Assembly: GCA_030390025.1 (NCBI GenBank)
Contig: JASTWF010000329.1
Coordinates: 62,001-126,000, forward strand
Source of the DNA: Squalus acanthias
Lineage: Eukaryota
DNA: 64,000 nt
Direction: 5' to 3'
Below the pieces are notes generated by a model. It was not told where the DNA came from, ran no database searches, and saw only the letters and a list, made by a program, of their open reading frames with translations. Made by a program: the position numbers and the translations under genes. Within the stretch, counting starts at the first letter, position 1; every line of letters begins with the position of its first letter. This document shows positions 8,641 through 64,000 of this stretch, piece by piece.

Positions 8641-8644
8641 TCTT

Positions 8645-31697: not shown

Positions 31698-31836
31698 TGA
31701 TGCGGAGATGCCGGTGTTGGACTGGGGTGGACAAAAATGAGAAGTCGCACAACACCAGGTTATAGTCCAACAGTTTTATTTGAAATCACAAGCTTTCGGA
31801 GCCCTGCTCCTTCGTCAGGTGAAGTGAAAAAATACC
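31698..31836 (-). mobile_element. Solo PLE family A pLTR with hammerhead motif and 11-bp TSD
   Basis: tcaaataactg at 31687-31697 and 31837-31847; homologous to 40086-40220; hammerhead motif 31786-31822 on the minus strand. Confidence 0.9.
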
Positions 31837-31894
31837 TCAAATAACTGAGACTATGGTTTATTTCCCGGCCACTAGGACCCGGTGGGGAACAGAT

Positions 31895-40082: not shown

Positions 40083-40174
40083 TCATGATGCGGAGATGCC
40101 GGTTGTTGGACTGGGGTGGACAAATTTGAGAGGTCGCACAACACCAGGTTATAGTCCAACAGTTTTATTTGAAA

Positions 40175-40216
40175 TCACAAGCTTTCGGAGCTATCGATTG
40201 CCCCTTCCTCAGGTGA
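40175..40216 (-). ncRNA. Minimal hammerhead ribozyme motif (inverted pLTR copy)
   Basis: Reverse complement of 42714-42755. Confidence 0.75.
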
Positions 40217-41786: not shown

Positions 41787-42210
41787 CATAGAAACATAGA
41801 AACATAGAATCTAGGAGCAGGAGTAGGCCATTCGGCCCGTCGAGCCTGCTCCACCATTCAATACGATCATGGCTGATCATCCAAATCCAGTACCCTGTCC
41901 CTGCTTTAATCCCCACAGTACACATATCCCACCCTACCCCCGTAACCCCACATATTTAATTCCCCCTAACATATCCCATCCTATCCCCATAACCCCACAT
42001 ATTTAATACCCCCCTAACACTAAGGGTCAATTTATCATAGCCAAATCAACCTAACCCGCACATTTTTGGACTGTGGGAGGAAACCGGAGCACCCGGAGGA
42101 AACCCACGCAGACACGGGGAGAATGTGCAAACTCCACACAGACAGTCACCCGAGGTCAGATTCGAACCCGGGTCCCTGGCGCTGTGAGGCACCAGTGCTA
42201 ACCACTATGA
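41787..42210 (-). mobile_element. V-SINE (HE1-like) joined to a CR1 3' end, inserted in the PLE ORF
   Basis: SINE ~41914-42209 matches 24700-24937; CR1 tail ~41787-41913 matches 25590-25710; PLE frame resumes ggggaa|cacttcagc. Confidence 0.88.
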
Positions 42211-42713
42211 CACTTCAGCAGTCAAGGACATTCAGCCTCAGATCTGCGGGTAAGCGTTCTCCAAGGCAACCTTAGAAACACACGACAACGCAAAATCATC
42301 GAGCAGAAACTGATAGCCAAGTTCCGCACTCATGAAGACGGTCTCAACCGGGATCTTGGGTTTATGTCACGATACATGACGTGATCCGGACTCGAGTCGT
42401 CGTTGGCTTGTTCACAGATGTGATTCCCAGTAAAAAAGTAAAAATTTTCCCAGTAAAAAAGTAAAAATTTTAAAGCTTTTCGTTTTACATACAGACGGCA
42501 GCTTTTGACACGTTAGAACCCCTGCGACTACACCTCATTGTCTCAGTTGTATCTTGCTATGTCTTTGATGTGGTACCTTCCTGGCTGACCTGATTAACTT
42601 TATCACACCTCGGCAGATAGTCAGGATGATTTAATTTAGTTGTCTGCAATTGTAAGGTACACATGCTTTGTTCTCTATCTATATATACTTTGGCGATTCT
42701 GTATCTATTTACT

Positions 42714-42755
42714 TCACCTGAGGAAGGGGCAATCGATAGCTCCGAAAGCTTGTGA
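42714..42755 (+). ncRNA. Minimal hammerhead ribozyme motif in PLE-A 3' pLTR
   Basis: tcac-CTGAGGA-a-ggggc-aatcgata-gctcc-GAAA-gctt-gtga: stem I tcac/gtga, stem II ggggc/gctcc, palindromic aagctt stem III, CUU cleavage triplet. Confidence 0.75.
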
Positions 42756-42803
42756 TTTCAAATAAAACTGTTGGACTATAACCTGGTGTTGTGCGACCTC
42801 TCA

Positions 42804-46405: not shown

Positions 46406-48148
46406 TTATGATCTAAAATTGTTGAACTCGATATTGAGTCCAGAGGGCTGTAGCGTGCCTAAACGAAAGATGAGGTGCTGTTCCTCGAGCTTACGCTGCA
46501 CTTCCATGGAACAGTGTAATAGGCCGAGGACGGTGAGGTCAGAGTGGGAGTGAAGCGGTGAATTAAAGTGACAGGCCACCGGGAGCTCGGGGTCCCCCTT
46601 ACGGACTGAACGGAGGTGTTCCGCAAAGCGGTCACCCAATCTGCGTTTGGTCTCCCCAATGTAGAGGAGTCCACATCGTGAGCAGCGAATACAGTATACT
46701 AAATTGCAGGAAGTACAAGTAAATCGCTGTTTCACCTGGAAGGGGTGTTTGGGGCCCTGGACAGTGGGAAGAGGGGAGGTATAAGGGCAGGTGTTGCATC
46801 TCCTGCGCGTGCACGGGAAGGTGCCGGGCGAAGGGGAAGGGGTGCTGGGGGTGGTAGAGGAGTAGACTAGGGTGTCGCGGAGGGAGCGGTCCCTACGGAA
46901 TGCTGAAAGGGGAGGTGAGGGGAAGATGTGTTTGGTGGTGGGATCACGCTGGAGGTGGCGGAAATGGCGGAGGATGATCCGTTGAATGTGGAGGCTGGTG
47001 GGGTGAAAGGTGAGGACAAGGGGAACCCTATCGTGGTTCTGGGAGGGAGGGGAAGGGGTGAGAGCAGAAGTGCGGGAGATAGAACGGACACGGTCAAGGG
47101 CCGTGTCGACCACGGTAGAGGGGAATCCTCGGTTGAGGAAAAAGGAAGACACGTCAGAAGCACTGGTATGGAAGGTGGCATCATCAGAGCAGATGCGGCG
47201 GAGACGGAGAAACTGGGAGAATGGAATAGAGTCCTTACAGGAGGCGGGGTGGGAGGAAGTGTAGTCCAGGTAGCTGTGGGAGTCAGTGGGCTTGTAGTGA
47301 ATGTTAGTCAATAACCTATCCCCAGAGATGGAGATGGAGAAGTCGAGGAAGGGAAGGGAAGAGTCGGAGATGGACCATGTGAAGGTGAGGGAAGGGTGGA
47401 AATTGGAAGCATAGTGAATGAAATGTTCTAGTTCAGGGCGAGAGCAGGAGACGGCACCGATACAGTCATCAATGTACCGGAAAAAGAGGTGAGGGAGGGG
47501 ACCCGAGTAGGACTGGAACAAAGAGTGTTCCACATATCCCACGAAAAGGCAGGCATAGCTAGGACCCATGCGGGTACCCATAGCAACACCTTTAATTTGG
47601 AGGAAATGGGTGGAGTCAAAGGAGAAGTTGTTCAATGTGAGAACAAGTTTAGCCAGGCGGAGGAGGGTAGTGGTGGATGGGGACTGGTTGGGCCTCTGTT
47701 CAAGGAAGAAGCGGAGCGCCCTCAGGCCATCCTGGTGGGGAATGGAGGTGTAGAGGGATTGTACGTCCATAGTGAAGAGGAGACGGTTGGGGCCGGGAAA
47801 CTGGAAACTGTTAAAATGGCGGAGGGCATCGGAAGAGTCGCAGATGTAGGTGGGAAGAGACTGGACAAGGGGAGAAAAAATAGAGTCGAGATAGGAAGAG
47901 ATAAGTTCCGTGGGGCAAGAACAGGCTGAAACGATGGGTCTACCGGGGCAGTCCTGTTTGTGGATCTTGGGAAGGAGGTAGAAGCTGGCTGTGCAGGGTT
48001 GGGGAACTATGAGGTTGGCAGCCGTGGGGGGGAAGATCTCCAGAGGAGATGAGGTCAGTGACGGTCTTGGACACGGTGGCTTGATGTTCAGTAGTGGGGT
48101 CATGGTCCAGGTGGAGGTAGGAGGAGGTGTCAGAGAGTTGGCGTTCAA
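46406..48148 (-). pseudogene. PLE-B reverse transcriptase/GIY-YIG endonuclease, long open part
   Basis: 580-aa ORF with YLLPKIHK, GRPIVS, MDVQSLYTSIP, GVAMGT, YIDD and GIY-YIG motifs; N-terminus separated by frameshifts. Confidence 0.9.
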
Positions 48149-49294
48149 CTTCCGCTAGGTAGAGGTCGGTTCGCCAAACAACAACAGCGCCACCCTTGTC
48201 AGCAGGTTTAATGACAATGTCAGGGTTGGATCGGAGAGAATGGAGTGCTGCAAGTTCAGAGGGAGGTAGGTTGGAGTGAGTGAGGGGAGCAGAGAAATTG
48301 AGCTGGCCGATGTCACGGCGGCAGTTAGCAATGAAAAGATCAAGAGAGGGTAAGAGGCCAGAGGGAGGGGTCCAGGTGGAACGAGAATTCTGAAAGCGGG
48401 AGAAAGGGTCAGCCGTGCGGGGGAAGACTCCTGGCCAGAGAAGTGGGGACGGAGGCGGCGGAAAAAGAGCTCAGCATCGTGCCGAGCTCGAAATTCATTG
48501 AGATGGGGGCGTAAGGGGATGAAGCTCAGGCCTTTGCTGAGGACTGATCGTTCGGAGTCAGAGAGGGGAAGGTCAGAGGGGATAGTGAAAACGCGGCAGG
48601 GGGTGAGATTGGGAGAAGGGGGGTCAGAGGAAAGTGAAGGGGAAGAAGGTTCTGGAGGGGCTTTAGTGTCCAAGAGTTGTTGAAGCTTGCGATCCTTGAC
48701 ATCGGAAAGGAAGAAGAAAAGTTTTTTGTTGAAGCGTCGGATGAGTCTAAGGATGAAATGGAACTGTGGACCCGGACAGCTTTGAGATAGAGTGCGTCGG
48801 TGCTGCTGAAGAGAGAGTGTTCATGTGGCGCCGCATGGCGTTGAGCGTGGATCTCAAGATGCGGCGAGAGCAGTAGTTCGAGGAACGATGAATATCTTGG
48901 AGATATTTGTAATCCTGGGTTGTACTGAAACACGAAGGGTGGAAGTTTAGTTGGAATCCACGTGGGATAAGTCGGAACCGGAGACAGTTGCTGAGGAAAG
49001 TAATGTGGCTGTGAAACCGAGTCTTGGCAGATACCTGATCAAACACGAGAAGGGAAACTGAAATCAATGAAGATGAACAAGGTTGAAGAGCCAAACGGAA
49101 ATCCCGTCGAAGAGAAGAGCAGAACTTCTTCAAGGTAGGCATTCCAAGAAGAGAGGTGGCAGTGAACCAAACACTAATACGATAGCAAAATACTGCGGAT
49201 GCTGGAAATCCGAAATAACAACAGAAAACGCTGGAAAAACTCAGCAGGCCAGGCAGCATCCGTGGAGAGAGAAAGAGAGTTAACGTTTCAGGTC

Positions 49295-49606: not shown

Positions 49607-49890
49607 GACGGAGGGAGCGGAGTATTGGACGGCAAGTGGGCGGGGAGGCTTCATAAATAACTAGTATAGGCCGCAAGCCCCAAATAATAACCTGAAGGTC
49701 CCGCGTTTGCAGCTTCGGGGCTTCTCCCGGTCACAGACCAGGCTAACGGCCGCCATCTTGATTCAGTGAGTAACAAAACGCATGCGCGGTCATCTTGATA
49801 TGACTCAAAGAGTGGGCGGGGCTTCCGTATCTGTTCCCCACCGGGTCCTTGTGCCCGGGTCAGTAAACCTTTGACTCAGTTATTTGAGGT
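49607..49890 (+). promoter_or_regulatory. Promoter/5' region of a ZNF-B paralog (inverted duplicate of ~31835-32116)
   Basis: Near-identical reverse complement; YY1 gccgccatcttg 49749-49760; GC box ~49814. Confidence 0.8.
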
Positions 49891-49901
49891 ATTTTTTCAC
49901 T

Positions 49902-49938
49902 TCACCTGACGAAGGAGCAGGGCTCCGAAAGCTTGTGA
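49902..49938 (+). ncRNA. Minimal hammerhead ribozyme motif in the pLTR hit by Tx1
   Basis: tcac-CTGACGA-a-ggagc-agg-gctcc-GAAA-gctt-gtga. Confidence 0.8.
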
Positions 49939-50055
49939 TTTCAAATAAAACTGCTGGACTATAACCTGGTGTTGATCTTTTTGGTTGCACAAATCAGGTT
50001 GGACAAATCAAAATTTACTGTAAATCAATTAAAACTTGAAATGAAACTTAATAAA

Positions 50056-53000
50056 TCAAATTAAAATTTGAAAGTCCGGGGTGACGATGCACTCCAGTCC
50101 CCGCGGCGCCCACCGGTCGCGGAAAAACTCAAGCGTGCCGGCGGACACCGCGTGCTCCATCTCCAGGGCCACCCGGGCGCGAACATGGCCGCGGAAGAGA
50201 GGCAGGCAATCGGGCCGAACGACCCCCTCGACCGCCCGCTGCCTGGACCAATTAATGGCTTTCTTGGCCAGGCCCAGGAGCAGTCCTACGAGGAGGTCCT
50301 CCGACCTACCCGCTCCCCTCCGCACCGGGTGACCGTAGATCAGGAGCGTGGGACTGAAGTGCAACCAGAAATTGAGGAGCAGCCCCTTCAAATAATGAAA
50401 GAGGGGCTGCAACCTCTCACATTCAACATAAATGTGATAAACGGACTCCTCCAGGCCGCAAAAATGGCAAGCAGCCTGGGAGTCCGTAAACCTACTTAAA
50501 ATCCTATTGCACGGGACTGCTCCGTGCAACACCCTCCAGGCCAAGTCCCCAATAGAACAAGGGAAGACTCCCGCGTAGAGAGCCTTCCAATGGGGACCTT
50601 CGCCTCCGCCGGACGGCAGGATGGTACGCCAAGGCGTGTCCGGACGGCAGACGAAGATGGCAAAGTGGAGAGTGTGCAGGAGCAGCCCGTACAGGAAACG
50701 CCTCCGTGCGGATTGAAAGGGCACGGAGGGCATTTCTCCGAGAAGGCTCAAGTGGTGAGGCGGCGGCTCCCGAGGGAGGATTCGGGGCCGGGCGCCGATA
50801 AGGAATTCCGTCCGAACGGGGGTCAGTTCGGACGGGATCGCCCCACGTGCTTGAGCCTCCTCGACACACCTAGTGGAGACGGGGCCCAGTGCCACTTTTA
50901 GCGACTCGATGGCTTTGACCGCGAGCCGGACGTTGACCCAGGACATGCGCCTCGCCAACTCCTCCGGCGCCATCCAGCCCGCTCCTCCGCCATCGAGCAG
51001 GTCCCCGACTCTGGTCACCTTACCGGGCACAGCCCTGCCCTCCGCCAGCCAGCCGAACCCGCGGTCGTGGAGGTGCGGATTCCTGAACAGCGGCTCCCGA
51101 AGGACGGCCGCCGCTCCTGACGGGGGAGAACTGCGCTCGGAGGCGACGCTGTTCCAAACCCATAGCAGTTCCTGGTAGAAGACAGGCAGCTCCCGCAGGC
51201 TGGCACGCGTGCCACCCACTCTCACAAACAGGAGCTGCGTGTCGTAATTGAGGCCGTGCAGCTGGCGGAAGAAATACGTCGCCAGCGCACGCCACCTAGG
51301 AGGATTCTCCACGTACAGGTATCTCTGCAGCGTCTGAAGACGGAAAGTCGCCGCCTGGGTGCGAAGGCACACCAGCGCCTGACCGCCCTCCCTAAGCGGG
51401 AGACTCAAAACCGTGGCAGAGACCCAGTGCTTCCTTTTGTCCCAGAAGAAGTCGACGAGCTTCTTCTGCATCTTGGCGACAAACGCAGGGGGAGGGATCA
51501 AAGTGACCAACCGGTACCACAACATGGCGGCCACCAGCTGGTTTATGACCAGCGCTCGACCCCTGTAGGACAACACTCGGAGCAGTCCTGTCCAGCGCCC
51601 TAGGCGAGCGGTGACTTTGGCCTCCAGCTCCAGCCAGTTCGCCGGCCAGGCGTCCTCGGCCGGGCTGAGGTAGACTCCCAGGTAGAGGAGGTGCGTGGTG
51701 CTCCAGGCGAAAGGCCCGAACTCCTCCGGCAGGGAGTCCACCTGCCATGGGCCCACCAGGAGTCCAGAACATTTCTCCCAGTTGATCTTGGCGGAGGATG
51801 CGTCCGAGTAAATCTGCTGGCATTCTCGCATCCTCCGCAAGTCGACGGGATCCGTGACCGCGAGGAGCACGTCATCGGCGTAAGCCGAGAGGACCACCTC
51901 CACGCCCGGCCCTTGCAGAGCCAGTCCCGTCAACCTCTTCCGCAAGAGGCGCAGGAAAGGCTCCACGCAAACGGCGTATAACTGACCGGACATGGGGCAT
52001 CCCTGACGCACCCCCCTCCCGAAGCGAAGGGGCGCCGTCAAAGACCCGTTAACTTTAATCAGACACTCCGCGGCGGCGTACAGAAGTCGGATCCGGGCGA
52101 CGAAATGCGTCCCGAACCCGAATGCGCGCAGAGTCCCGAAAAGATACTCGTGATCCACCCTGTCGAACGCCTTCTCCTGATCCAGGGAAAGGAAGGCGAC
52201 CGACAGACCAGCCCTCTGGGAATGGTGGACCAGGTCCCGGACCAGATGGATGTTATCGTGGATACTCCGGCCCGGGACCGTGTAGGACTGGTCGGGGTGG
52301 ATCATGCGGGCCAGCACGGTGCCAAGGCGAGCAGACATAGCCCTGGCGAAAATTTTGTAGTCCGTGCTGAGGAGGGAGACCGGGCGCCAGTTCTTAAGTA
52401 GGCGGAGATCGCCCTTCTTGGGCAGCAGGACGATGACCGCCCTGCGCCAAGAGAGGGGCATCTCCCCGGTCGCCAGACTTTCCCCCAGGACCCGCGCGTA
52501 GTCGTCCCCCAAGACGTCCCAGAACGCCCTGTGGAACTCCACGGTCAGCCCGTCCAGCCCCGGGGACTTGCCCCTCGAGAGCTGGCGCAGGGCGCCGGTC
52601 AGCTCCGCCAGGCTTAGCGGAGCTTCTAAATTCTCGGCGCCCTCCGGGCCGACCTTCGGCAGGTCCTCCCACAAAACTCTGCGCGCATCCTCGCTGGACG
52701 GATCCGAAGAGAACAGAGCCCCGTAATAGGCCCGGGCCTCCGCGCTGATGCCCTCCGGATCCGAGACCAGAGATCCGTCGTCGGCCAGCAGCCCCAAGAG
52801 CTGCTTACGGACCCCCCGTCTTTTTTCCAGCGAGTAGAAGAAGGGGGAGCCGCGGTCCAGGTCCCGCAGGAGCTGGATCCGCGACCTCACGTACGCGCCT
52901 CGGGACCCGACCAGCTGCAGGTCCTTCAGCACGCCCTTCTTCTCTTCGTACACCTTCCGCAGGGCCGGGTCCTCGACGACTTGACCGAGACGGGACTCCA

Positions 53001-53955
53001 GGTCGAGCACTTCTTTCTCCAATCGCCCGACCCGGGCCTCCCGTCTCTTGGTCGACCCCTTCGCGTACTCCTGACAGAAGACGCGGACGTGAGCCTTGCC
53101 CACGTCCCACCATAGCCTCAAGGAGGGGAAGCCTCCCCGCTTCCTTCTCCAGTCGGCCCAGAACCGGCGAAACGAATCCCGGAACCGCGCGTCCTCCAGC
53201 AGCAGGTTGTTAAAATGCCAGTACGCGGAACCCCCCCGCGCGCGCAGCGGAGCGAGCTCCGCCCACACCAGGTGGTGGTCCGTGCACGGCACCGGCCGCA
53301 TGGAAGCCGCCGGAACGCAGGAGACGTACGCCCGGGAAATGTAAAGGCGGTCGATTCTGGACCTTCCTCCTCCAGACCTCACGCTCGTGAAGGCGCTGGA
53401 GTCGGGATGGAGATTTCGCCAGACGTCCACCAAGTCGAAGGACCCGACCAGGTCCCGCAACTTCTCCATCGCCGCCGGGCTTCGCGGGGGACCCGACCGG
53501 TCCCGCGCCTCGAGGGTACAATTGAAATCCCCCCCGAGGATGACGCACTCGCCCACGTCGATGGAGCCCAGAAGAGCGGACACTTCTCCGAAGAAGCGCA
53601 CTTGCTGCGCACCGGTCCGGGGGGCGTACACGTTCACTAAATGGAGTGGCACGCCTCCCAGGCGAACAGTGACCTGGAGCAAGCGGCCCGGCACGTGCTC
53701 CTTGACCCTCAAGATCTCCGGCTGAAAATGCGGGGCCAGCAAGACAGCCACCCCGCAGGAATTGTTGGAGAGGTGACTCATGCTGACCCCTCCTTGCCAC
53801 TCCAGGAGCCACGTGGCCTCGTCTCCCGGAACGGTGTGGGTTTCTTGCAGGAAGCACACCGCATATTTCCCGTCCCGAAGGACCGAGAAGTTATTGAATC
53901 TACGGCGCGCCTCCCTGCTGCCGTTGATGTTGAGGCTGGCTATGGTTATCTTCAT
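50056..53955 (-). CDS. Tx1 ORF2: APE endonuclease + RT + C-terminal zinc motif
   Basis: SLNING, FLQETH, GGDFN, SRIDR, TDH; KSPGLDG, DQEKAFDRV, GVRQGCPMS, YADD; CHFCGLEESVYHIYVEC. Confidence 0.97.
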   Translation of the reverse strand: MKITIASLNINGSREARRRFNNFSVLRDGKYAVCFLQETHTVPGDEATWLLEWQGGVSMSHLSNNSCGVAVLLAPHFQPEILRVKEHVPGRLLQVTVRLGGVPLHLVNVYAPRTGAQQVRFFGEVSALLGSIDVGECVILGGDFNCTLEARDRSGPPRSPAAMEKLRDLVGSFDLVDVWRNLHPDSSAFTSVRSGGGRSRIDRLYISRAYVSCVPAASMRPVPCTDHHLVWAELAPLRARGGSAYWHFNNLLLEDARFRDSFRRFWADWRRKRGGFPSLRLWWDVGKAHVRVFCQEYAKGSTKRREARVGRLEKEVLDLESRLGQVVEDPALRKVYEEKKGVLKDLQLVGSRGAYVRSRIQLLRDLDRGSPFFYSLEKRRGVRKQLLGLLADDGSLVSDPEGISAEARAYYGALFSSDPSSEDARRVLWEDLPKVGPEGAENLEAPLSLAELTGALRQLSRGKSPGLDGLTVEFHRAFWDVLGDDYARVLGESLATGEMPLSWRRAVIVLLPKKGDLRLLKNWRPVSLLSTDYKIFARAMSARLGTVLARMIHPDQSYTVPGRSIHDNIHLVRDLVHHSQRAGLSVAFLSLDQEKAFDRVDHEYLFGTLRAFGFGTHFVARIRLLYAAAECLIKVNGSLTAPLRFGRGVRQGCPMSGQLYAVCVEPFLRLLRKRLTGLALQGPGVEVVLSAYADDVLLAVTDPVDLRRMRECQQIYSDASSAKINWEKCSGLLVGPWQVDSLPEEFGPFAWSTTHLLYLGVYLSPAEDAWPANWLELEAKVTARLGRWTGLLRVLSYRGRALVINQLVAAMLWYRLVTLIPPPAFVAKMQKKLVDFFWDKRKHWVSATVLSLPLREGGQALVCLRTQAATFRLQTLQRYLYVENPPRWRALATYFFRQLHGLNYDTQLLFVRVGGTRASLRELPVFYQELLWVWNSVASERSSPPSGAAAVLREPLFRNPHLHDRGFGWLAEGRAVPGKVTRVGDLLDGGGAGWMAPEELARRMSWVNVRLAVKAIESLKVALGPVSTRCVEEAQARGAIPSELTPVRTEFLIGARPRILPREPPPHHLSLLGEMPSVPFQSARRRFLYGLLLHTLHFAIFVCRPDTPWRTILPSGGGEGPHWKALYAGVFPCSIGDLAWRVLHGAVPCNRILSRFTDSQAACHFCGLEESVYHIYVECERLQPLFHYLKGLLLNFWLHFSPTLLIYGHPVRRGAGRSEDLLVGLLLGLAKKAINWSRQRAVEGVVRPDCLPLFRGHVRARVALEMEHAVSAGTLEFFRDRWAPRGLECIVTPDFQILI

Positions 53956-53980
53956 CTCAGAAGCATAGTGCAACCTCTAC

Positions 53981-56131
53981 CTAACGGAGGGGAGGGAGCG
54001 CGGTCACTGACGACCGCCACTCCCTCAGCAGCCCAGTGTGGAAGCTCTTGAGCCGACGCAGCTCGAGCCGGCCAACGTCCTTGTCCGCGCCCATGATTTT
54101 AACGGCGGCGCGGACGGACACGACGAGCAGCGCCAGCTCCGACCACTTGTCGAGGGCCAGCCGGATCTTCTTGTGACGACCCTGGCTCACGGCCATAAAA
54201 TCCCGGAGTTCCCCTACGGGGATGAGGGGAGAGTCGGTGAAGGGCACGAGGGCGTCCATCGCCTCGCTGCCGATGGACTCCAAATCGTCCTCGTTGCCCA
54301 ACACCGAGTCCCCGTCCTCCTCCGGGAGGTCGTCACCGGCGGCCGACCCGTCCGTCACACAGGGTGCAGCGAACGGCTCGGCCGCACCGGCCGGCCCCGC
54401 CTCCGTCACGATCCCACCCCCAGGATCGGTGGCAGAGGAGTCCACCCTGGGCTCCTTCAGGGGCGCCGGGCCGGGAGGCGGCGGCGGCGGTTCGGGGCCC
54501 CCCCCCGCCTCAGGCGCCGGGGCGACCGGAGAAACCGGGGAGAAAATAATCCCAAATTCCTCCAGCACGTCCGGCGCCAACAACAGAGACGGAATCAGGG
54601 GGCTTTCCGCCTCCCCGCCACCAACCTCCAACCCAGCGGGCTGGGGATTGCTACACTCCTCCACCAGGTCGAGCAGTCCCTGGGAGATGTCTGGGTTATA
54701 AAAGGCGGGCTCGGCTTCAGCCTCTTTGGCCTCGCCCGCCCCAGTCCCCAGGACGCCCGACCCGGCGAGGAGCAACGGTTCCAGAACTACATTTCCCTCC
54801 GCGGGTTGTTCCGCGCCCCCCCCCACGGGCAGGGTCTCTTCCCCATCCCCGGGAGGCACAGGTCGGACAGACTCGGCTGTCTCACCCTCCCGAGGGACAG
54901 ACAACCCCTGCCGATCGCGCGCGACGATGACGGTGGTGGGGTGGGGCGCAGCACCCGCGGCGGGCGACTGCCCCCCTTTTGCGGAGGGACCTTCCTCCTC
55001 GCAGTCCTCCTGCTGGGGGCGGAGCTTTCTTTTTAACGTATTGGGGCCCGGAGAGGGGGAGGCCTCCATGTCTGCTGGGGCCTCCCTCTCTGCCCCCTTC
55101 CGACGACTGGGTTTCTTGGGCCCCTCGGGCCCGAGCCCGGCCGCAGGTCTTGATTCAGCTGCCTCAGCAGTTGCGGTCACGGGCCCGGGCACGAGGACCC
55201 CCCCAGTCTCATGCGTCCCGACCAACTCCGCGATATACTCGGGCGTGAGTTCGGTCAACTCCAATGTTTCCTCCGTGAGGGGATCCGCCCTTAGATGTTT
55301 ATTTTTCCTACGCGCCTTCCTTCCCCCCGGACGCTCTCCCTCCTCCCCGCCGGAGGCCGTGGTGGTGTTGGCCTCCGATTTCGACCGCGCATCCGTCGCC
55401 GTCGACGCGCGGACAGTATCAGGGGGAGGGGGGGCGGCGGCGCCAACCCTGGCCGCGCCAGGTGTCGTGGTGGCCTTGGAGGCGGGGCAGTTTTTGCGGA
55501 CGTGCCCCACCTCCTTACAGGCGTAGCACCGCACGCCGTCCGAGGTCCAGAAGACGCGGTGGGCGGTCCCCCCGTGGAGCACCGTGAACGCGCCGTCCGC
55601 GTCCTCCTCCCGCGCCAGCCGGACGAAAAGCTGGCGCCGGAAGGAGAAGACGTGCCGAAGGCTGGCTTCCCGGAAGCCGAGCGGGATGGGTGTGATCCCC
55701 GACCTCACCTCCCCCAGTTGACGTAGGTGGGGGAGGAGGAGCTCACCCGGAACAAAGGGCGGGACGTTGGAAACCACAATCCTTTGCGCGGTGGCCTCAA
55801 GGGGGTCCACCGGCAGGAAGGTCCCGCCCACGGTGAGCCCCTTCTCGATGGCCAGGGACACCGCCCGCTCCGACCCCAGGAAGAACACAGCCTTGCCGTA
55901 CATTTTAGAGGCGGCGACGATGGCTGAAGGGCCGACAACCCCAGCCATGGCTTTAACGCACGCCTCTATAGTCATGTTGGGGTGAGTGTAGCTCCTGACC
56001 CCATTCTTCCTCGTAAGGAGGGTAAAAGGTGACGGGGTAACAGGAGGACTCGTGGCTGCGGCCGTGGCCGCGGCTGCCACGCTCGCATACGTCCTCGCTG
56101 CCCCCGCCACCGACGAAGATGTACTCGCCAT
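53981..56131 (-). CDS. Tx1 ORF1: nucleic-acid-binding protein with CCHC knuckle and long low-complexity tail
   Basis: RIVVSNVPPFVP, HVFSFRRQ and CYACKEVGHVRKNC motifs typical of Tx1 ORF1; first ATG 56131. Confidence 0.93.
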   Translation of the reverse strand: MASTSSSVAGAARTYASVAAAATAAATSPPVTPSPFTLLTRKNGVRSYTHPNMTIEACVKAMAGVVGPSAIVAASKMYGKAVFFLGSERAVSLAIEKGLTVGGTFLPVDPLEATAQRIVVSNVPPFVPGELLLPHLRQLGEVRSGITPIPLGFREASLRHVFSFRRQLFVRLAREEDADGAFTVLHGGTAHRVFWTSDGVRCYACKEVGHVRKNCPASKATTTPGAARVGAAAPPPPDTVRASTATDARSKSEANTTTASGGEEGERPGGRKARRKNKHLRADPLTEETLELTELTPEYIAELVGTHETGGVLVPGPVTATAEAAESRPAAGLGPEGPKKPSRRKGAEREAPADMEASPSPGPNTLKRKLRPQQEDCEEEGPSAKGGQSPAAGAAPHPTTVIVARDRQGLSVPREGETAESVRPVPPGDGEETLPVGGGAEQPAEGNVVLEPLLLAGSGVLGTGAGEAKEAEAEPAFYNPDISQGLLDLVEECSNPQPAGLEVGGGEAESPLIPSLLLAPDVLEEFGIIFSPVSPVAPAPEAGGGPEPPPPPPGPAPLKEPRVDSSATDPGGGIVTEAGPAGAAEPFAAPCVTDGSAAGDDLPEEDGDSVLGNEDDLESIGSEAMDALVPFTDSPLIPVGELRDFMAVSQGRHKKIRLALDKWSELALLVVSVRAAVKIMGADKDVGRLELRRLKSFHTGLLREWRSSVTALPPLR

Positions 56132-57103
56132 AATGGAGGGTTCTTTAAGGGCTACACTCACCCCAAGTCACAGGCCTGAAGGTGTTAATGGCCTCGGTTT
56201 TTTTTTTTGTTTTCCCCTGAGCAGAGGGAGCTCTTAAATTGAAGGCACACCTCTCCCTTTAGTTGATTGAATTGGGAGAGGGGCCTTCTCCCCTCTGCTC
56301 AATGGGTACTTAATTAAAATAGATTGAGGTGCCTCTTAGAGAGAGAGGCAGAGAGAGACAAGAGACAAAGAGAGAGAGAGAGAGGGGGGTGGGAAGGAGG
56401 GAAGCCGCAAGGGCAGGGTCGCCACTCAGGATGGTGGGTGGGTGGGTGTTGGCAGGGGGGTGCACTCTCCGATGTAATACAAGTCTTTGGTGGTGGTCTT
56501 CTGGTGGGGGGAGAAGATGTCTTCACCTGGGATAGCTGGAGATGCCCAGGCTCAGTCCTGCACCAGGTCTTAACGATGCCCAATTGGATTAAATTAATTG
56601 GGGAACTTCACCTAGGCAGCTCCAGCTGTCCCAGGTCAGGCAATGGGAAAGGGGTGTTTAATATGGTGTGTGCGGCCTAGCTTTTACAGAAGCCACACAC
56701 ACACACGCCCCTTGGATGTTCCGGCCTTCTTCTTGTCTTCTTTCCTCCCCCCACCTACAAAACAAAGTCTCTGGGAGAGTGCCCCAGAATCACACCCACC
56801 TGTAGCTGATATTCTTTCCTTCCTTCCTCCTTCCAAACAGATGATGTTTTGTTGTTTTCTCCCCTCTCTCCCTCTCCTAAAATGGAGGCCAATTGAGGAG
56901 GCAGTGTGGAAAGGCCTCTCCTCTGTTGTTAATGGCCTTGGCCTTCCTTTCCTTCTTTTCCTTCTCCTCTCCTGTCCTCTCTCTCCAGGCACCTCAGTTG
57001 TGGATGTGTTGGTTGTTGGTGGTGGTCTGTTGGCTGGTCTCCTTCTCCTTCTCCTCTTCCTGCTCACAGAGACCACCACTCTGCTGCTGCTGCTGCTCAC
57101 CAC

Positions 57104-57149
57104 AAGCTCGTGATTTCAAATAAAGCTGTTGGACTATAACCTGGTGTTG
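57104..57149. repeat. 46-bp copy of the Penelope target sequence between the two Tx1 copies
   Basis: aagctcgtgatttcaaataaagctgttggactataacctggtgttg versus 49929-49974, 3 mismatches. Confidence 0.92.
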
Positions 57150-57217
57150 ATCTTTTTGGTTTGACAGAACGCAAATTTACTGTAAATCAATTAAAACTTG
57201 AAATGAAACTTAATAAA

Positions 57218-60200
57218 TCAAATTAAAATTTGAAAGTCCGGGGTGATGATGCACTCCAGTCCCCGCGGCGCCCACCGGTCGCGGAAAAACTCAAGCGTGC
57301 CGGCGGATACCGCGTGCTCCATCTCCAGGGCCACCCGGGCGCGAACATGGCCGCGGAAGAGAGGCAGGCAATCGGGCCGAACGACCCCCTCGACCGCCCG
57401 CTGCCTGGACCAATTAATGGCTTTCTTGGCCAGGCCCAGGAGCAGTCCTACGAGGAGGTCCTCTGACCTACCCGCTCCCCTCCGCACCGGGTGACCGTAG
57501 ATCAGGAGCGTGGGGCTGAAGTGCAACCAGAAATTGAGGAGCAGCCCCTTCAAATAATGAAAGAGGGGCTGCAACCTCTCACATTCAACATAAATGTGAT
57601 AAACGGACTCCTCCAGGCCGCAAAAATGGCAAGCAGCCTGGGAGTCCGTAAACCTACTTAAAATCCTATTGCACGGGACTGCTCCGTGCAACACCCTCCA
57701 GGCCAAGTCCCCAATAGAACAAGGGAAGACTCCCGCGTAGAGAGCCTTCCAATGGGGACCTTCGCCTCCGCCGGACGGCAGGATGGTACGCCAAGGCGTG
57801 TCCGGACGGCAGACGAAGATGGCAAAGTGGAGAGTGTGCAGGAGCAGCCCGTACAGGAAACGCCTCCGTGCGGATTGAAAGGGCACGGAGGGCATTTCTC
57901 CGAGAAGGCTCAAGTGGTGAGGCGGCGGCTCCCGAGGGAGGATTCGGGGCCGGGCGCCGATAAGGAATTCCGTCCGAACGGGGGTCAGTTCGGACGGGAT
58001 CGCCCCACGTGCTTGAGCCTCCTCGACACACCTAGTGGAGACGGGGCCCAGTGCCACTTTTAGCGACTCGATGGCTTTGACCGCGAGCCGGACGTTGACC
58101 CAAGACATGCGCCTCGCCAACTCCTCCGGCGCCATCCAGCCCGCTCCTCCGCCATCGAGCAGGTCCCCGACTCTGGTCACCTTACCGGGCACAGCCCTGC
58201 CCTCCGCCAGCCAGCCGAACCCGCGGTCGTGGAGGTGCGGATTCCTGAACAGCGGCTCCCGAAGGACGGCCGCCGCTCCTGACGGGGGAGAACTGCGCTC
58301 GGAGGCGACGCTGTTCCAAACCCATAGCAGTTCCTGGTAGAAGACAGGCAGCTCCCGCAGGCTGGCACGCGTGCCACCCACTCTCACAAACAGGAGCTGC
58401 GTGTCGTAATTGAGGCCGTGCAGCTGGCGGAAGAAATACGTCGCCAGCACACGCCACCTAGGAGGATTCTCCACGTACAGGTATCTCTGCAGCGTCTGAA
58501 GACGGAAAGTCGCCGCCTGGGTGCGAAGGCACACCAGCGCCTGACCGCCCTCCCTAAGCGGGAGACTCAAAACCGCGGCAGAGACCCAGTGCTTCCTTTT
58601 GTCCCAGAAGAAGTCGACGAGCTTCTTCTGCATCTTGGCGACAAACGCAGGGGGAGGGATCAAAGTGACCAACCGGTACCACAACATGGCGGCCACCAGC
58701 TGGTTTATGACCAGCGCTCGACCCCTGTAGGACAACACTCGGAGCAGTCCTGTCCAGCGCCCTAGGCGAGCGGTGACTTTGGCCTCCAGCTCTTGCCAGT
58801 TCGCCGGCCAGGCGTCCTCGGCCGGGCTGAGGTAGACTCCCAGGTAGAGGAGGTGCGTGGTGCTCCAGGCGAAAGGCCCGAACTCCTCCGGCAGGGAGTC
58901 CACCTGCCATGGGCCCACCAGGAGTCCAGAACATTTCTCCCAGTTGATCTTGGCGGAGGATGCGTCCGAGTAAATCTGCTGGCATTCTCGCATCCTCCGC
59001 AAGTCGACGGGATCCGTGACCGCGAGGAGCACGTCATCGGCGTAAGCCGAGAGGACCACCTCCACGCCCGGCCCTTGCAGAGCCAGTCCCGTCAACCTCT
59101 TCCGCAAGAGGCGCAGGAAAGGCTCCACGCAAACGGCGTATAACTGACCGGACATGGGGCATCCCTGACGCACCCCCCTCCCGAAGCGAAGGGGCGCCGT
59201 CAAAGACCCGTTAACTTTAATGAGACACTCCGCGGCGGCGTACAGAAGTCGGATCCGGGCGACGAAATGCGTCCCGAACCCGAATGCGCGCAGAGTCCCG
59301 AAAAGATACTCGTGATCCACCCTGTCGAACGCCTTCTCCTGATCCAGGGAAAGGAAGGCGACCGACAGACCAGCCCTCTGGGAATGGTGGACCAGGTCCC
59401 GGACCAGATGGATGTTATCGTGGATACTCCGGCCCGGGACCGTGTAGGACTGGTCGGGGTGGATCATGCGGGCCAGCACGGTGCCAAGGCGAGCAGACAT
59501 AGCCCTGGCGAAAATTTTGTAGTCCGTGCTGAGGAGGGAGACCGGGCGCCAGTTCTTAAGTAGGCGGAGATCGCCCTTCTTGGGCAGCAGGACGATGACC
59601 GCCCTGCGCCAAGAGAGGGGCATCTCCCCGGTCGCCAGACTTTCCCCCAGGACCCGCGCGTAGTCATCCCCCAAGACGTCCCAGAATGCCCTGTGGAACT
59701 CCACGGTCAGCCCGTCCAGCCCCGGGGACTTGCCCCTCGAGAGCTGGCGCAGGGCGCCGGTCAGCTCCGCCAGGCTTAGCGGAGCTTCTAAATTCTCGGC
59801 GCCCTCCGGGCCGACCTTCGGCAGGTCCTCCCACAAAACTCTGCGCGCATCCTCGCTGGACGGATCCGAAGAGAACAGAGCCCCGTAATAGGCCCGGGCC
59901 TCCGCGCTGATGCCCTCCGGATCCGAGACCAGAGATCCGTCGTCGGCCAGCAGCCCCAAGAGCTGCTTACGGACCCCCCGTCTTTTTTCCAGCGAGTAGA
60001 AGAAGGGGGAGCCGCGGTCCAGGTCCCGCAGGAACTGGATCCGCGACCTCACGTACGCGCCTCGGGACCCGACCAGCTGCAGGTCCTTCAGCGCGCCCTT
60101 CTTCTCTTCGTACACCTTCCGCAGGGCCGGGTCCTCGACGACTTGACCGAGACGGGACTCCAGGTCGAGCACTTCTTTCTCCAATCGCCCGACCCGGGCC

Positions 60201-61117
60201 TCCCGCCTCTTGGTCGACCCCTTCGCGTACTCCTGACAGAAGACGCGGACGTGAGCCTTGCCCACGTCCCACCATAGCCTCAAGGAGGGGAAGCCTCCCC
60301 GCTTCCTTCTCCAGTCGGCCCAGAACCGGCGAAACGAATCCCGGAACCGCGCGTCCTCCAGCAGCAGGTTGTTAAAATGCCAGTACGCGGACCCCCCCCG
60401 CGCGCGCAGCGGAGCGAGCTCCGCCCACACCAGGTGGTGGTCCGTGCACGGCACCGGCCGCATGGAAGCCGCCGGAACGCAGGAGACGTACGCCCGGGAA
60501 ATGTAAAGGCGGTCGATTCTGGACCTTCCTCCTCCAGACCTCACGCTCGTGAAGGCGCTGGAGTCGGGATGGAGATTTCGCCAGACGTCCACCAAGTCGA
60601 AGGACCCGACCAGGTCCCGCAACTTCTCCATCGCCGCCGGGCTTCGCGGGGGACCCGACCGGTCCCGCGCCTCGAGGGTACAATTGAAATCCCCCCCGAG
60701 GATGACGCACTCGCCCACGTCGATGGAGCCCAGAAGAGCGGACACTTCTCCGAAGAAGCGCACTTGCTGCGCACCGGTCCGGGGGGCGTACACGTTCACT
60801 AAATGGAGCGGCACGCCTCCCAGGCGAACAGTGACCTGGAGCAAGCGGCCCGGCACGTGCTCCTTGACCCTCAAGATCTCCGGCTGAAAATGCGGGGCCA
60901 GCAAGACAGCCACCCCGCAGGAATTGTTGGAGAGGTGACTCATGCTGACCCCTCCTTGCCACTCCAGGAGCCACGTGGCCTCGTCTCCCGGAACGGTGTG
61001 GGTTTCTTGCAGGAAGCACACCGCATATTTCCCGTCCCGAAGGACCGAGAAGTTATTGAATCTACGGCGCGCCTCCCTGCTGCCGTTGATGTTGAGGCTG
61101 GCTATGGTTATCTTCAT
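57218..61117 (-). CDS. Tx1 ORF2 (copy 2)
   Basis: Same motifs as copy 1; only a handful of amino-acid differences. Confidence 0.97.
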   Translation of the reverse strand: MKITIASLNINGSREARRRFNNFSVLRDGKYAVCFLQETHTVPGDEATWLLEWQGGVSMSHLSNNSCGVAVLLAPHFQPEILRVKEHVPGRLLQVTVRLGGVPLHLVNVYAPRTGAQQVRFFGEVSALLGSIDVGECVILGGDFNCTLEARDRSGPPRSPAAMEKLRDLVGSFDLVDVWRNLHPDSSAFTSVRSGGGRSRIDRLYISRAYVSCVPAASMRPVPCTDHHLVWAELAPLRARGGSAYWHFNNLLLEDARFRDSFRRFWADWRRKRGGFPSLRLWWDVGKAHVRVFCQEYAKGSTKRREARVGRLEKEVLDLESRLGQVVEDPALRKVYEEKKGALKDLQLVGSRGAYVRSRIQFLRDLDRGSPFFYSLEKRRGVRKQLLGLLADDGSLVSDPEGISAEARAYYGALFSSDPSSEDARRVLWEDLPKVGPEGAENLEAPLSLAELTGALRQLSRGKSPGLDGLTVEFHRAFWDVLGDDYARVLGESLATGEMPLSWRRAVIVLLPKKGDLRLLKNWRPVSLLSTDYKIFARAMSARLGTVLARMIHPDQSYTVPGRSIHDNIHLVRDLVHHSQRAGLSVAFLSLDQEKAFDRVDHEYLFGTLRAFGFGTHFVARIRLLYAAAECLIKVNGSLTAPLRFGRGVRQGCPMSGQLYAVCVEPFLRLLRKRLTGLALQGPGVEVVLSAYADDVLLAVTDPVDLRRMRECQQIYSDASSAKINWEKCSGLLVGPWQVDSLPEEFGPFAWSTTHLLYLGVYLSPAEDAWPANWQELEAKVTARLGRWTGLLRVLSYRGRALVINQLVAAMLWYRLVTLIPPPAFVAKMQKKLVDFFWDKRKHWVSAAVLSLPLREGGQALVCLRTQAATFRLQTLQRYLYVENPPRWRVLATYFFRQLHGLNYDTQLLFVRVGGTRASLRELPVFYQELLWVWNSVASERSSPPSGAAAVLREPLFRNPHLHDRGFGWLAEGRAVPGKVTRVGDLLDGGGAGWMAPEELARRMSWVNVRLAVKAIESLKVALGPVSTRCVEEAQARGAIPSELTPVRTEFLIGARPRILPREPPPHHLSLLGEMPSVPFQSARRRFLYGLLLHTLHFAIFVCRPDTPWRTILPSGGGEGPHWKALYAGVFPCSIGDLAWRVLHGAVPCNRILSRFTDSQAACHFCGLEESVYHIYVECERLQPLFHYLKGLLLNFWLHFSPTLLIYGHPVRRGAGRSEDLLVGLLLGLAKKAINWSRQRAVEGVVRPDCLPLFRGHVRARVALEMEHAVSAGTLEFFRDRWAPRGLECIITPDFQILI

Positions 61118-61142
61118 CTCAGAAGCATAGTGCAACCTCTAC

Positions 61143-63293
61143 CTAACGGAGGGGAGGGAGGGCGGTCACTGACGACCGCCACTCCCTCAGCAGCCCAGTG
61201 TGGAACGTCTTGAGCCGACGCAGCTCGAGCCGGCCAACGTCCTTGTCCGCGCCCATGATTTTAACGGCGGCGCGGACGGACACGACGAGCAGCGTCAGCT
61301 CCGACCACTTGTCGAGGGCCAGCCGGATCTTCTTGTGACGACCCTGGCTCATGGCCATAAAATCCCGGAGTTCCCCTACGGGGATGAGGGGAGAGTCGGT
61401 GAAGGGCACGAGGGCGTCCATCGCCTCGCTGCCGATGGACTCCAAATCGTCCTCGATGCCCCCCACCGAGTCCCCGTCCTCCTCCGGGAGGTCGTCACCG
61501 GCGGCCAACCCGTCCGTCACACAGGGTGCAGCGAACGGCTCGGCCGCACCGGCCGGCCCCGCCTCCGTCACGATCCCACCCCCAGGATCGGTGGCAGAGG
61601 AGTCCACCCTGGGCTCCTTCAGGGGCGCCGGGCCGGGAGGCGGCGGCGGCGGTTCGGGGCCCCCCCCCGCCTCAGGCGCCGGGGCGACCGGAGAAACCGG
61701 GGAGAAAATAATCCCAAATTCCTCCAGCACGTCCGGCGCCAACAACAGAGACGGAGTCAGGGGGCTTTCCGTCTCCCCGCCACCAACCTCCGACCCAGCG
61801 GGCTGGGGATTGCTACACTCCTCCACCAGGTCGAGCAGTCCCTGGGAGATATCTGGGTTATAAAAGGCGGGCTCGGCTTCAGCCTCTTTGGCCTCGCCCG
61901 CCCCAGTCCCCAGGACGCCCGACCCGGCGAGGAGCAACGGTTCAGGTTCTACATTTTCTTCCGCGGGTTGTTCCGCGCCCCCCCCCACGGGCAGGGTCTC
62001 TTCCCCATCCCCGGGAGGCACAGGTCGGACAGACTCGGCTGTCTCACCCTCCCGAGGGACAGACGACCCCTGCCGATCGCGCGCGACGATGACGGTGGTG
62101 GGGTGGGGCGCAGCACCCGCGGCGGGCGACTGCCCCCCTTTTGCGGAGGGACCTTCCTCCTCGCAGTCCTCCTGCTGGGGGCGGAGCTTTCTTTTTAACG
62201 TATTGGGGCCCGGAGAGGGGGAGGCCTCCATGTCTGCTGGGGCCTCCCTCTCTGCCCCCTTCCGACGACTGGGTTTCTTGGGCCCCTCGGGCCCGAGCCC
62301 GGCCGCAGGTCTTGATTCAGCTGCCTCAGCAGTTGCGGTCACGGTCACGGGCCCGGGCACGAGGACCCCCCCAGTCTCATGCGTCCCGACCAACTCCGCG
62401 ATATACTCGGGCGTGAGTTCGGCCAATTCAGATGTTTCCTCCGCGAGGGGATCCGCCCTTATGTGTTTATTTTTCCTACGCGCCTTCCTTCCCCCCGGAC
62501 GCTCTCCCTCCTCCCCGCCGGAGGCCGTGGTGGTGTTGGCCTCCGATTCCGACCGCGCATCCGTCGCCGTGCGGACAGCATCAGGGGGAGGGGGGGTGGC
62601 GGCGCCAACCCTGGCCGCGCCAGGTGTCGTGGCGGCCTTGGAGGCGGGGCAGTTTTTGCGGACGTGCCCCACCTCCTTACAGGCGTAGCACCGCACGCCG
62701 TCCGAGGTCCAGAAGACGCGGTGGGCGGTCCCCCCGTGGAGCACCGTGAACGCGCCGTCCGCGTCCTCCTCCCGCGCCAGCCGGACGAAAAGCTGGCGCC
62801 GGAAGGAGAAGACGTGCCGAAGGCTGGCTTCCCGGAAGCCGAGCGGGATGGGTGTGATCCCCGACCTCACCTCCCCCAGTTGACGTAGGTGGGGGAGGAG
62901 GAGCTCACCCGGAACAAAGGGCGGGACGTTGGAAACCACAATCCTTTGCGCGGTGGCCTCAAGGGGGTCCACCGGCAGGAAGGTCCCGCCCACGGTGAGC
63001 CCCTTCTCGATGGCCAGGGACACCGCCCGCTCCGACCCCAGGAAGAACACAGCCTTGCCGTACATTTTAGAGGCGGCGACGATGGCTGAAGGGCCGACAA
63101 CCCCAGCCATGGCTTTTACACACGCCTCTATAGTCATGTTGGGGTGAGTGTAGCTCTTGACCCCATTCTTCCTCGTAAGGAGGGTAAAAGGTGACGGGGT
63201 AACAGGAGGACTCGTGGCTGCGGCCGTGGCCGCGGCTGCCACGCTTGCGTACGTCCTCGCTGCCCCCGCCACCGACGAAGATGTACTCGCCAT
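61143..63293 (-). CDS. Tx1 ORF1 (copy 2)
   Basis: Same CCHC knuckle; compensating in-frame indels relative to copy 1. Confidence 0.93.
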   Translation of the reverse strand: MASTSSSVAGAARTYASVAAAATAAATSPPVTPSPFTLLTRKNGVKSYTHPNMTIEACVKAMAGVVGPSAIVAASKMYGKAVFFLGSERAVSLAIEKGLTVGGTFLPVDPLEATAQRIVVSNVPPFVPGELLLPHLRQLGEVRSGITPIPLGFREASLRHVFSFRRQLFVRLAREEDADGAFTVLHGGTAHRVFWTSDGVRCYACKEVGHVRKNCPASKAATTPGAARVGAATPPPPDAVRTATDARSESEANTTTASGGEEGERPGGRKARRKNKHIRADPLAEETSELAELTPEYIAELVGTHETGGVLVPGPVTVTATAEAAESRPAAGLGPEGPKKPSRRKGAEREAPADMEASPSPGPNTLKRKLRPQQEDCEEEGPSAKGGQSPAAGAAPHPTTVIVARDRQGSSVPREGETAESVRPVPPGDGEETLPVGGGAEQPAEENVEPEPLLLAGSGVLGTGAGEAKEAEAEPAFYNPDISQGLLDLVEECSNPQPAGSEVGGGETESPLTPSLLLAPDVLEEFGIIFSPVSPVAPAPEAGGGPEPPPPPPGPAPLKEPRVDSSATDPGGGIVTEAGPAGAAEPFAAPCVTDGLAAGDDLPEEDGDSVGGIEDDLESIGSEAMDALVPFTDSPLIPVGELRDFMAMSQGRHKKIRLALDKWSELTLLVVSVRAAVKIMGADKDVGRLELRRLKTFHTGLLREWRSSVTALPPLR

Positions 63294-64000
63294 AATGGAG
63301 GGTTCTTTAAGGGCTACACTCACCCCAAGTCACAGGCCTGAAGGTGTTAATGGCCTCGGTTTTTTTTTTGTTTTCCCCCGAGCAGAGGGAGCTCTTAAAT
63401 TGAAGGCACACCTCTCCCTTTAGTTGATTGAATTGGGAGAGGGGCCTTCTCCCCTCTGCTCAATGGGTACTTAATTAAAATAGATTGAGGTGCCTCTTAG
63501 AGAGAGAGGCAGAGAGAGACAAGAGACAAAGAGAGAGAGAGAGAGGGGGGTGGGAAGGAGGGAAGCCGCAAGGGCAGGGTCGCCACTCAGGATGGTGGGT
63601 GGGTGGGTGTTGGCAGGGGGGTGCACTCTCCGATGTAATACAAGTCTTTGGTGGTGGTCTTCTGGTGGGGGGAGAAGATGTCTTCACCTGGGATAGCTGG
63701 AGATGCCCAGGCTCAGTCCTGCACCAGGTCTTAACGATGCCCAATTGGATTAAATTAATTGGGGAACTTCACCTAGGCAGCTCCAGCTGTCCCAGGTCAG
63801 GCAATGGGAAAGGGGTGTTTAATATGGTGTGTGCGGCCTAGCTTTTACAGAAGCCACACACACACACGCCCCTTGGATGTTCCGGCCTTCTTCTTGTCTT
63901 CTTTCCTCCCCCCACCTACAAAACAAAGTCTCTGGGAGAGTGCCCCAGAATCACACCCACCTGTAGCTGATATTCTTTCCTTCCTTCCTCCTTCCAAACA

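Follow-up and report, generated by a model that had tools for sequence, protein, structure and literature searches.

Two neighbouring copies of a long interspersed nuclear element (LINE) stop at exactly the same base of another repeat, the 3' terminus of a Penelope-like element (PLE) with a predicted hammerhead ribozyme, in a 64,000-nucleotide stretch of the genome of Squalus acanthias (assembly GCA_030390025.1, contig JASTWF010000329.1, positions 62,001 to 126,000 of the forward strand; hereafter the window, whose own numbering is used throughout). The question raised by this locus is whether the shared base reflects a target that the LINE itself selects or merely the common descent of two adjacent copies. 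An initial annotation of the window had favoured the first of these possibilities, a LINE of the Tx1 clade that is site-specific for the hammerhead-bearing PLE repeat, with the reservation that the two junctions might not be independent events. Here, we analyze the junctions, the unoccupied targets and the truncated copies in the window and in the assembly as a whole, and we consider it highly probable that they are the product of a Tx1-clade LINE family with an integration machinery that is directed specifically to a single site of the PLEs' 3'-terminal module.

One insertion base in the window and in the genome

Both LINE copies of the window lie on its minus strand. Copy 1 (49975..57103, 7129 bp) is the downstream-most of three 7.1-kb units arranged head to tail, two of which are held by the window; copy 2 (57150..64000), which is 98.7% identical to copy 1 across 6917 bp, continues for 264 bp beyond the window's end and is followed by copy 3. 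The 3' ends of copies 1 and 2 (...accaaaaagat) both abut caacaccaggttatagtcc, at 49974/49975 and 57149/57150, exactly where the initial annotation had located them, and the plus strand at both junctions reads ...ggactataacctggtgttg|atctttttgg. At its 5' end copy 1 (gtggtgagcagcag...) meets a short spacer, at 57103/57104. In DNA fetched from past the window, the third LINE copy is succeeded by a PLE terminus and unique DNA, and the array ends near the window-equivalent position 71480. Because the 3'-terminal block of copy 1 is unlike that of copies 2 and 3, the array must represent at least two independent insertions. The reservation about independence was thus justified to the extent that the two junctions are adjacent and belong to a single three-copy array, but not to the extent that this array goes back to one event.

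The same target also occurs uninterrupted in the window, at 22891, 31750 and 40139 on the plus strand and at 42773-42791 on the minus strand, and each of the empty sites previously proposed (22890/22891, 31749/31750, 40138/40139 and 42791/42792) does carry the motif. In all four, the match extends across the junction for 12 or more additional bases (tgaga[a/g]gtc[g/c]ca), so that the junction falls inside the repeat instead of at its margin. The site at 31749/31750 belongs to a plus-strand segment (31529..32116) in which a PLE terminus (31698-31749, tail included) continues without a break into the remainder of the PLE end. The flank beyond the far end of the array (locus L092) is 99.6% identical to 31529-31795 over 267 nt and the near flank, 49607-49974, is 96.2% identical to 31750-32116 over 368 nt; since both flanks of the array match this region, 31529-32116 is a genuine paralogue, without the insertion, of the occupied locus, as had been supposed. 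A 27-bp tandem repeat (30809-31591) adjoins the empty paralogue and recurs at the far end of the array (389-449 of L092), and its presence at both loci is part of the evidence that the occupied and the empty locus are duplicates. Another empty target (22873..22935, plus strand) is a short PLE end with its insertion base at 22890/22891.

The assembly, 3.7 Gb in 3882 contigs, was searched with the last 200 nt of copy 1 as a 3' probe and with the first 250 nt of the 5' untranslated region (UTR) as a 5' probe. From the 982 first-look candidates of the 3' probe we scored 40, each 98-100% identical, and read 30 loci; another 30 loci were read for the 5' probe, which had 1093 candidates. At 29 of the 30 3'-end loci the LINE, which terminates in ...aaaaaga[t/g], joins a PLE end at the same base, gtcgca|caacaccagg, a recurrence that excludes chance and bears out the proposed specificity for the hammerhead-bearing repeat. 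Beyond this base, 14 of the 29 continue into the antisense hammerhead, with correlated variants across the site and past it (e.g., AATTTT...GGTAAGT) that mark PLE subfamilies, 12 pass through 46-54 nt and then meet the 5' end of a further LINE copy, and the remaining three end in short or inverted PLE fragments. The one off-target locus, L004, lies outside any PLE. The genome-wide survey of 3' flanks has therefore revealed dispersed copies, on different contigs and with unrelated DNA beyond the PLE, that share a single junction in several PLE subfamilies.

Target sequence also lies upstream of the LINE at all 30 of the 5'-end loci. In 16 of them, unique DNA that differs from locus to locus is followed by a PLE terminus, gtcgca, the spacer and the LINE; in the other 14 the spacer and the LINE follow the 3' end of another LINE. 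The expected junction was not found in 2 of 13 and in 6 of 16 junction regions, where four of the six are truncated copies and two (L010 and L011) are unexplained. Unoccupied targets are abundant as well, and all 40 of the scored matches, from 344 candidates, run uninterrupted across the site. We considered that the 46 nt might be a 3' tail of the LINE itself, shared with a partner resembling a short interspersed nuclear element (SINE), and rejected this idea since the PLE continues for hundreds of bases beyond them, with subfamily-specific variants. As read from the assembled junctions, the presumptive first nick and the start of reverse transcription are shown to lie at gtcgca|caacaccagg, in the orientation of the LINE.

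The LINE and its Penelope-like target

Each of the two LINE copies contains two open reading frames (ORFs) on the minus strand. In copy 1, ORF1 (53981..56161, 726 amino acids) is an open frame that includes a zinc knuckle of the CCHC type (zf-CCHC, 21.5 bits, above the Pfam cutoff of 20.8) and sits upstream of ORF2 (50056..53973, 1305 amino acids), which encodes an endonuclease of the apurinic/apyrimidinic endonuclease (APE) type, a reverse transcriptase and a C-terminal zinc-binding region. Both frames are also open in copy 2, at the same lengths (ORF1 61143-63323, ORF2 57218-61135). The ORF2 products of both copies match the Pfam families Exo_endo_phos at residues 12-233 (1.7e-11) and then RVT_1 at residues 518-767 (8.3e-38); their match to zf-RVT is weak, 24.5 bits and under the cutoff of 27.5. 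Compared with the 149-kDa protein of Xenopus Tx1, ORF2 has 651 of 1299 residues in common (50% identity over 99% of its length, 1238 bits); its score against human L1 ORF2p, the best match among solved L1 ORF2 proteins, is 281 bits and far below this. By pairwise similarity to the Tx1L prototype, the LINE is thus a member of the Tx1 clade of the L1 group, among the retrotransposons that lack long terminal repeats (LTRs). The best partial protein matches to ORF2 are elasmobranch-named entries, and annotations of sea turtles contain hundreds of relatives with 52-57% identity. This Tx1-type family is young, seemingly intact and probably still active.

The occupied target is a PLE terminal fragment downstream of copy 1 (49607..49974, plus strand, in PLE sense). 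Two further PLE segments of the window help to assign it. A PLE copy at 40127..42803 (plus strand) retains an ORF remnant with GIY-YIG at 40500-41795, found by tblastn and Pfam, and has its own 3' end on both sides, in inverted copies (40127-40524 and 42409-42803, 97.7% identical), each with an empty target (40138/40139 and 42791/42792). This arrangement around a plus-strand PLE reveals the PLE-sense strand of the repeat. The plus-strand frame 41016-41807 scores 20.5 bits for GIY-YIG, under the Pfam cutoff. A second PLE family is represented by an open frame of 582 amino acids (46406..48154, minus strand) that adjoins the occupied target and is 34% identical to 40500-41795; its matches to RVT_1 (24.9 bits) and then to GIY-YIG (19.9 bits) are both under the cutoffs, and their order and combination fit a PLE. 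On homology, these reverse transcriptase and GIY-YIG frames, with their sub-cutoff Pfam scores, identify the target repeat as belonging to Penelope-like elements. A run of 312 undetermined bases (N) at 49295-49606 separates the PLE body from the insertion-bearing PLE end, so that the frame at 46406-48154 and the occupied end are not joined by continuous sequence. The 1.4-kb direct repeat formed by 44694-46114 and 47878-49294 (98.5% identical, period 3184 bp) is a partial tandem of the PLE that holds this open frame.

A predicted minimal hammerhead lies at 49902-49938 of the occupied PLE end, with CTGACGA at 49906-49912 and a predicted cut at 49934/49935 (GAAAGCTT|G). The distance from this cut to the LINE junction, put at about 40 bp by the initial annotation, measures 40 nt. 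In PLE sense the layout consists of CUGANGA, a 5-bp helix II, GAAAGCUU|G and 40 nt to the insertion base; the PLE 3' terminus follows 12-13 nt past that base, or 52 nt past it when an optional tail is present. In 19 PLE ends the CUGANGA and GAAA boxes are invariant, 95.9% of the helix cells are paired and two pairs in helices I and II have changed on both sides (seven cells); none of 500 shuffles reached the pairing score, and loop II varies in length. The PLE-end motif, first noticed by eye and backed by this covariation, is predicted to be a minimal hammerhead of type I. The LINE is oriented antisense to the PLE and to its hammerhead. Processing of the LINE's own transcript by the hammerhead was consequently rejected, since a ribozyme on the opposite strand cannot act on that RNA.

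Some other features of the window and of the genome touch on the PLEs. Long arrays of a satellite of about 67 bp occupy 3197-8645, 19702-21389, 36719-40082 and 42803-44486, and two of these start right at the outer PLE termini (40082/40127 and 42803), as if they were linked to the PLE. Compact pairs of inverted PLE 3' ends occur at five loci elsewhere, L069 (G000:C174), L073 (G000:C15), L008, L011 and L009. In such pairs the ends face outward and the centre of symmetry is in or near the hammerhead, an arrangement that would be expected if both DNA strands prime PLE cDNA.

Target-site duplications and the 5' spacer

Five of the 30 3'-end loci are 5'-truncated within about 1 kb of their 3' ends, and their target-site duplications, which start at the insertion base, can be read directly: 2 nt in L022, 5-7 nt in L009, 12-14 nt in L023 and 16 nt in L014, where the duplication copies a rare local variant. 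At the off-target locus L004 a 16-nt duplication is found in non-PLE DNA, accaGCA|CAACACCtGG, in which 12 of 13 bases are those of the PLE target. The 5' joints of the truncated copies have 2-5 nt of microhomology. Such 5' truncation, combined with duplications that begin at the insertion base, is the hallmark of target-primed reverse transcription by the LINE itself; it is shown by these copies that the second strand is joined a few bases downstream of the first nick, with duplications of 2-16 nt and microhomology at the joints as a result. The sequence at L004 suggests in addition that recognition may require only a short core, GCA|CAACACC.GG. The truncated copies at L004 and L009, which are independent, begin at the same position of the element (about 298 nt from its 3' end), where it reads cctgg and can pair with cc[a/t]gg of the target, a situation that fits a microhomology-guided 5' joining.

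Ahead of the full-length copies, 46-54 nt of the target sequence right of the site are repeated, or 11-12 nt in one subfamily. This spacer ends at aagctt|gtggtgagcag or at aagctttcggagc|tgctgac.... Between copies 2 and 1 of the window it comprises 46 nt (57104..57149, minus strand) that likewise reproduce the target on the right of the insertion base, and we take it to be copy 1's leader; it differs from the local target downstream of that copy at 3 of 45 positions. The C variant is present in all three spacers of the array, whereas T is found in the local target as well as in the empty paralogue. When the spacers of 18 elements were compared with their own 3' flanks, two were identical, ten had 1-2 differences and five had 3-8 differences among 45 positions; in the remaining one, L042, the spacer has 46 nt, yet the local target to the right of the insertion base has just 19 nt. 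Spacers that already have 1-2 differences from the local target are found even in L005, L008 and L012, whose 3' ends are at least 99% identical to that of copy 1. The spectrum of variants is also different: 35 C, 11 T, five A and one G in 52 spacers versus three C, nine T, five A and one G in 18 occupied targets (Fisher p = 2.7e-4, for loci that are not fully independent and were picked by their similarity to copy 1). Since most spacers deviate from their local target, since the two spectra differ and since the array in the window has C against T, we read the spacer as a leader borne by the RNA. More precisely, it is probably inherited with the element and occasionally replaced through a long duplication, gene conversion or unequal exchange.

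Two peculiarities of this region may be recorded here. Counting rightwards from the insertion base, the 24th position (ccaacag[N]ttt) is hypervariable, with all four bases represented in target and spacer alike, and the surrounding 20 nt are nearly invariant. After the spacer, the LINE 5' end of most full-length copies (e.g., L040, L047, L051 and L058) has ctgacgaaggag(cag), which is an inverted copy of the hammerhead core of the target and may remain from an ancestral insertion into an inverted PLE pair.

Contigs from sequencing runs were consulted as well. A 706-nt contig of run X10 bridges the LINE 5' UTR, the spacer and a LINE 3' end; other bridging pieces, with fewer than 31 letters on one side, were left uncounted. 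In the contigs of the four runs covered, guessed to be RNA or of uncertain kind, the depth of the PLE segment is far greater than that of the LINE.

These observations can be accommodated in the following scheme. The full-length RNA would carry at its 5' end a leader of 46-54 nt (or, in one subfamily, 11-12 nt) that reproduces the target on the right of the nick, and such a leader could enter the RNA either by a transcriptional start upstream of the site or by read-through from an upstream member of an array. It would probably let the end of the cDNA anneal to the target and so produce a seamless 5' junction. It would also rebuild an intact gtcgca|caacacc upstream of each full-length insertion, which would allow new copies to stack head to tail and would explain why such arrays are frequent. 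If transcripts extend into the downstream caacacc, the additional sequence may help to position priming exactly, in the manner of R1 and R2, for which the text of PMC4494074 relates a proposal that co-transcribed target sequence helps integration. The PLE end, multicopy and conserved, could serve the LINE as a safe harbour. We lean, by a small margin of belief, towards the view that a copy of the target is indeed part of the transcript and that this leader seals the 5' junction, rebuilds the target, enables self-extending arrays and keeps a landing pad available while PLE ends are being destroyed.

Alternative explanations, precedents and significance

The shared junction might have been inherited rather than targeted if one ancestral insertion into a PLE end had been spread by segmental or tandem duplication. 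The window considered by itself would invite such an explanation: its copies are adjacent members of one array, 98.7-99.6% identical, and the paralogue of the occupied locus demonstrates that duplication acts in this region. That paralogue is, however, empty, and the 3'-terminal block of copy 1 is not that of copies 2 and 3; moreover, the junctions are found on many contigs, with unrelated unique flanks and in different PLE subfamilies, the truncated copies have their own duplications of differing length, and one insertion lies outside any PLE. The dispersal over contigs and subfamilies and the unrelated flanks lead us to treat this explanation, about which the initial annotation had itself warned, as excluded for all practical purposes. 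Scarcely more credible is the proposal that the LINE does not choose its site at all and that either the PLE machinery copies composites of PLE and LINE or the PLE inserts beside LINE 3' ends. It is true that PLE ends far outnumber the LINE in the contigs of the sequencing runs, and that PLE copies are often 5'-truncated and inverted, so that short ends could in principle carry passengers. But LINE-free PLE ends are contiguous across the site in every one of the 40 scored matches, the 3' flanks of the LINE vary with the PLE subfamily, the off-target insertion has no PLE around it, and LINE copies that have lost part of their own 5' side, and whose duplications begin at the site, point to the LINE's own target-primed reverse transcription.

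A more substantial challenge concerns the spacer, which could be a long target-site duplication of the conventional kind, generated by a second nick close to AAGCTT whenever the element inserts, and not a leader carried by the RNA. In L016 and L030 the spacer equals the local target exactly, with the rare AAAATT variant in L016, and the 1-2 differences of ten more elements could be the result of ageing. Ageing is a poor account of L005, L008 and L012, which have their differences in spite of nearly identical 3' ends, and of the five elements that differ at 3-8 of 45 positions, and the 46-nt spacer of L042 exceeds the 19 nt of its local target. Furthermore, none of the five truncated copies has a duplication of more than 16 nt, the spacers' spectrum is unlike that of occupied targets (p = 2.7e-4), and the three spacers of the window differ both from the local target and from the empty paralogue. 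A simple long duplication at each insertion was accordingly dropped for most copies, on the grounds of the mismatches, the short duplications of truncated copies and the spectrum, and as a general account of the spacer we judge it unlikely, though by no means negligible. Site-specific integration with an RNA-borne leader nonetheless has several observations to contend with. The exact local matches of L016 and L030 imply that long duplications, gene conversion or unequal exchange also occur and that the leader model is incomplete. When 1.3 kb of 5' sequence of 30 copies were arranged in a tree, drawn without support values, spacer and junction types had no clean link with lineage, whereas a strict inheritance of the leader would predict one. 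The specificity of the endonuclease itself is not separable here from a specificity that stems from pairing between RNA and target. The loci that were read are the best-scoring and youngest copies rather than older ones, and the candidate counts are lower bounds. Finally, the hammerhead that the initial annotation had placed in the terminal repeat stands on its covariation but finds no counterpart in Rfam, which gave no hammerhead at the gathering score in the whole window and, at E values up to 10, none in 49600-50060 or 31650-32200.

With R1 and R2 the family described here shares a precise 3' junction at one base of a multicopy target. R2 employs a restriction-like endonuclease and carries a ribozyme at its own 5' end, in contrast to the present case, in which the ribozyme is a part of the target and is located on the strand opposite to the LINE.

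Closer relatives are found within the Tx1 clade. Tx1L of Xenopus laevis inserts at a specific site in the piggyBac-type DNA transposon Tx1D (PMC4494074; PMC1919474), and the likeness extends to two ORFs of near-equal sizes (ORF2 of 1305 amino acids here and 1308 in Tx1L, 50% identical end to end), to an APE-type endonuclease and, as these sources portray Tx1L, to one site within another multicopy transposon. The differences are that the target here is a PLE 3' end with a hammerhead, a retroelement of another class, into which the insertion is antisense, and that full-length copies have a target-derived leader and form head-to-tail arrays. Among other Tx1 families discussed in the text of PMC4494074, Keno inserts into U2 genes and Kibi and Koshi into microsatellites, and a figure legend of the same paper also names U5, 5S and satellite targets. 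In crocodilians (Kojima 2015; PMC4494074), Tx1-Mar is directed to Mariner-N4, Tx1-9_AMi to Harbinger, and Tx1-8_Crp and Tx1-4_AMi to LTR retrotransposons; the paper's text further discusses flank-dependent transcription of the SINEU elements, which are thought to be mobilised by crocodilian Tx1 families. These crocodilian members of the clade, too, favour a defined position within other transposable elements, among them retrotransposons, but Penelope is mentioned nowhere in the main text of PMC4494074, to which (as distinct from its target figure and supplements) this comparison extends. Tx1-like repeats have been reported from cartilaginous fishes, with no target stated in the portion of that report considered here (PMC8455134).

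For the target, the best precedent is PAc, a PLE of Anolis that has a hammerhead in its terminal repeat and 3' ends that are set by internal start sites of the reverse transcriptase (PMC11167929). It also has an optional tail of 30-40 nt, and both DNA strands are cut and extended (PMC11167929). The short and long termini about 40 nt apart and the inverted ends that we observe fit this layout; in contrast to our locus, no LINE within a PLE end is reported in PMC11167929. A literature search, which covered papers rather than Repbase, Repbase Reports or Dfam, found none that describes a Tx1 element aimed at a PLE. The novelty that the initial annotation had guardedly suggested is therefore upheld, within those papers, for the PLE target and not for the habit of targeting transposons, for which Tx1 families have already been published (the text of PMC4494074).

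If the proposed interpretation is true, this would be a vertebrate LINE of the APE type, apparently intact, that integrates with R2-like precision at both of its junctions and has as its target the best-conserved part of a competing retroelement, the stretch that separates the hammerhead from the start sites of the PLE reverse transcriptase. With or without the leader, Penelope-like elements are an addition to the list of targets of the Tx1 clade, a family already known for precise targeting. The approximately 1000 young and mostly full-length copies, together with many empty sites, truncated copies with readable duplications and one informative off-target site, constitute a natural data set for base-precise integration by an APE-type LINE, and precise LINEs are models for targeted DNA insertion. 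For the biology of the two elements, it means that one retroelement family systematically disrupts the 3' module on which the reverse transcription of another depends.

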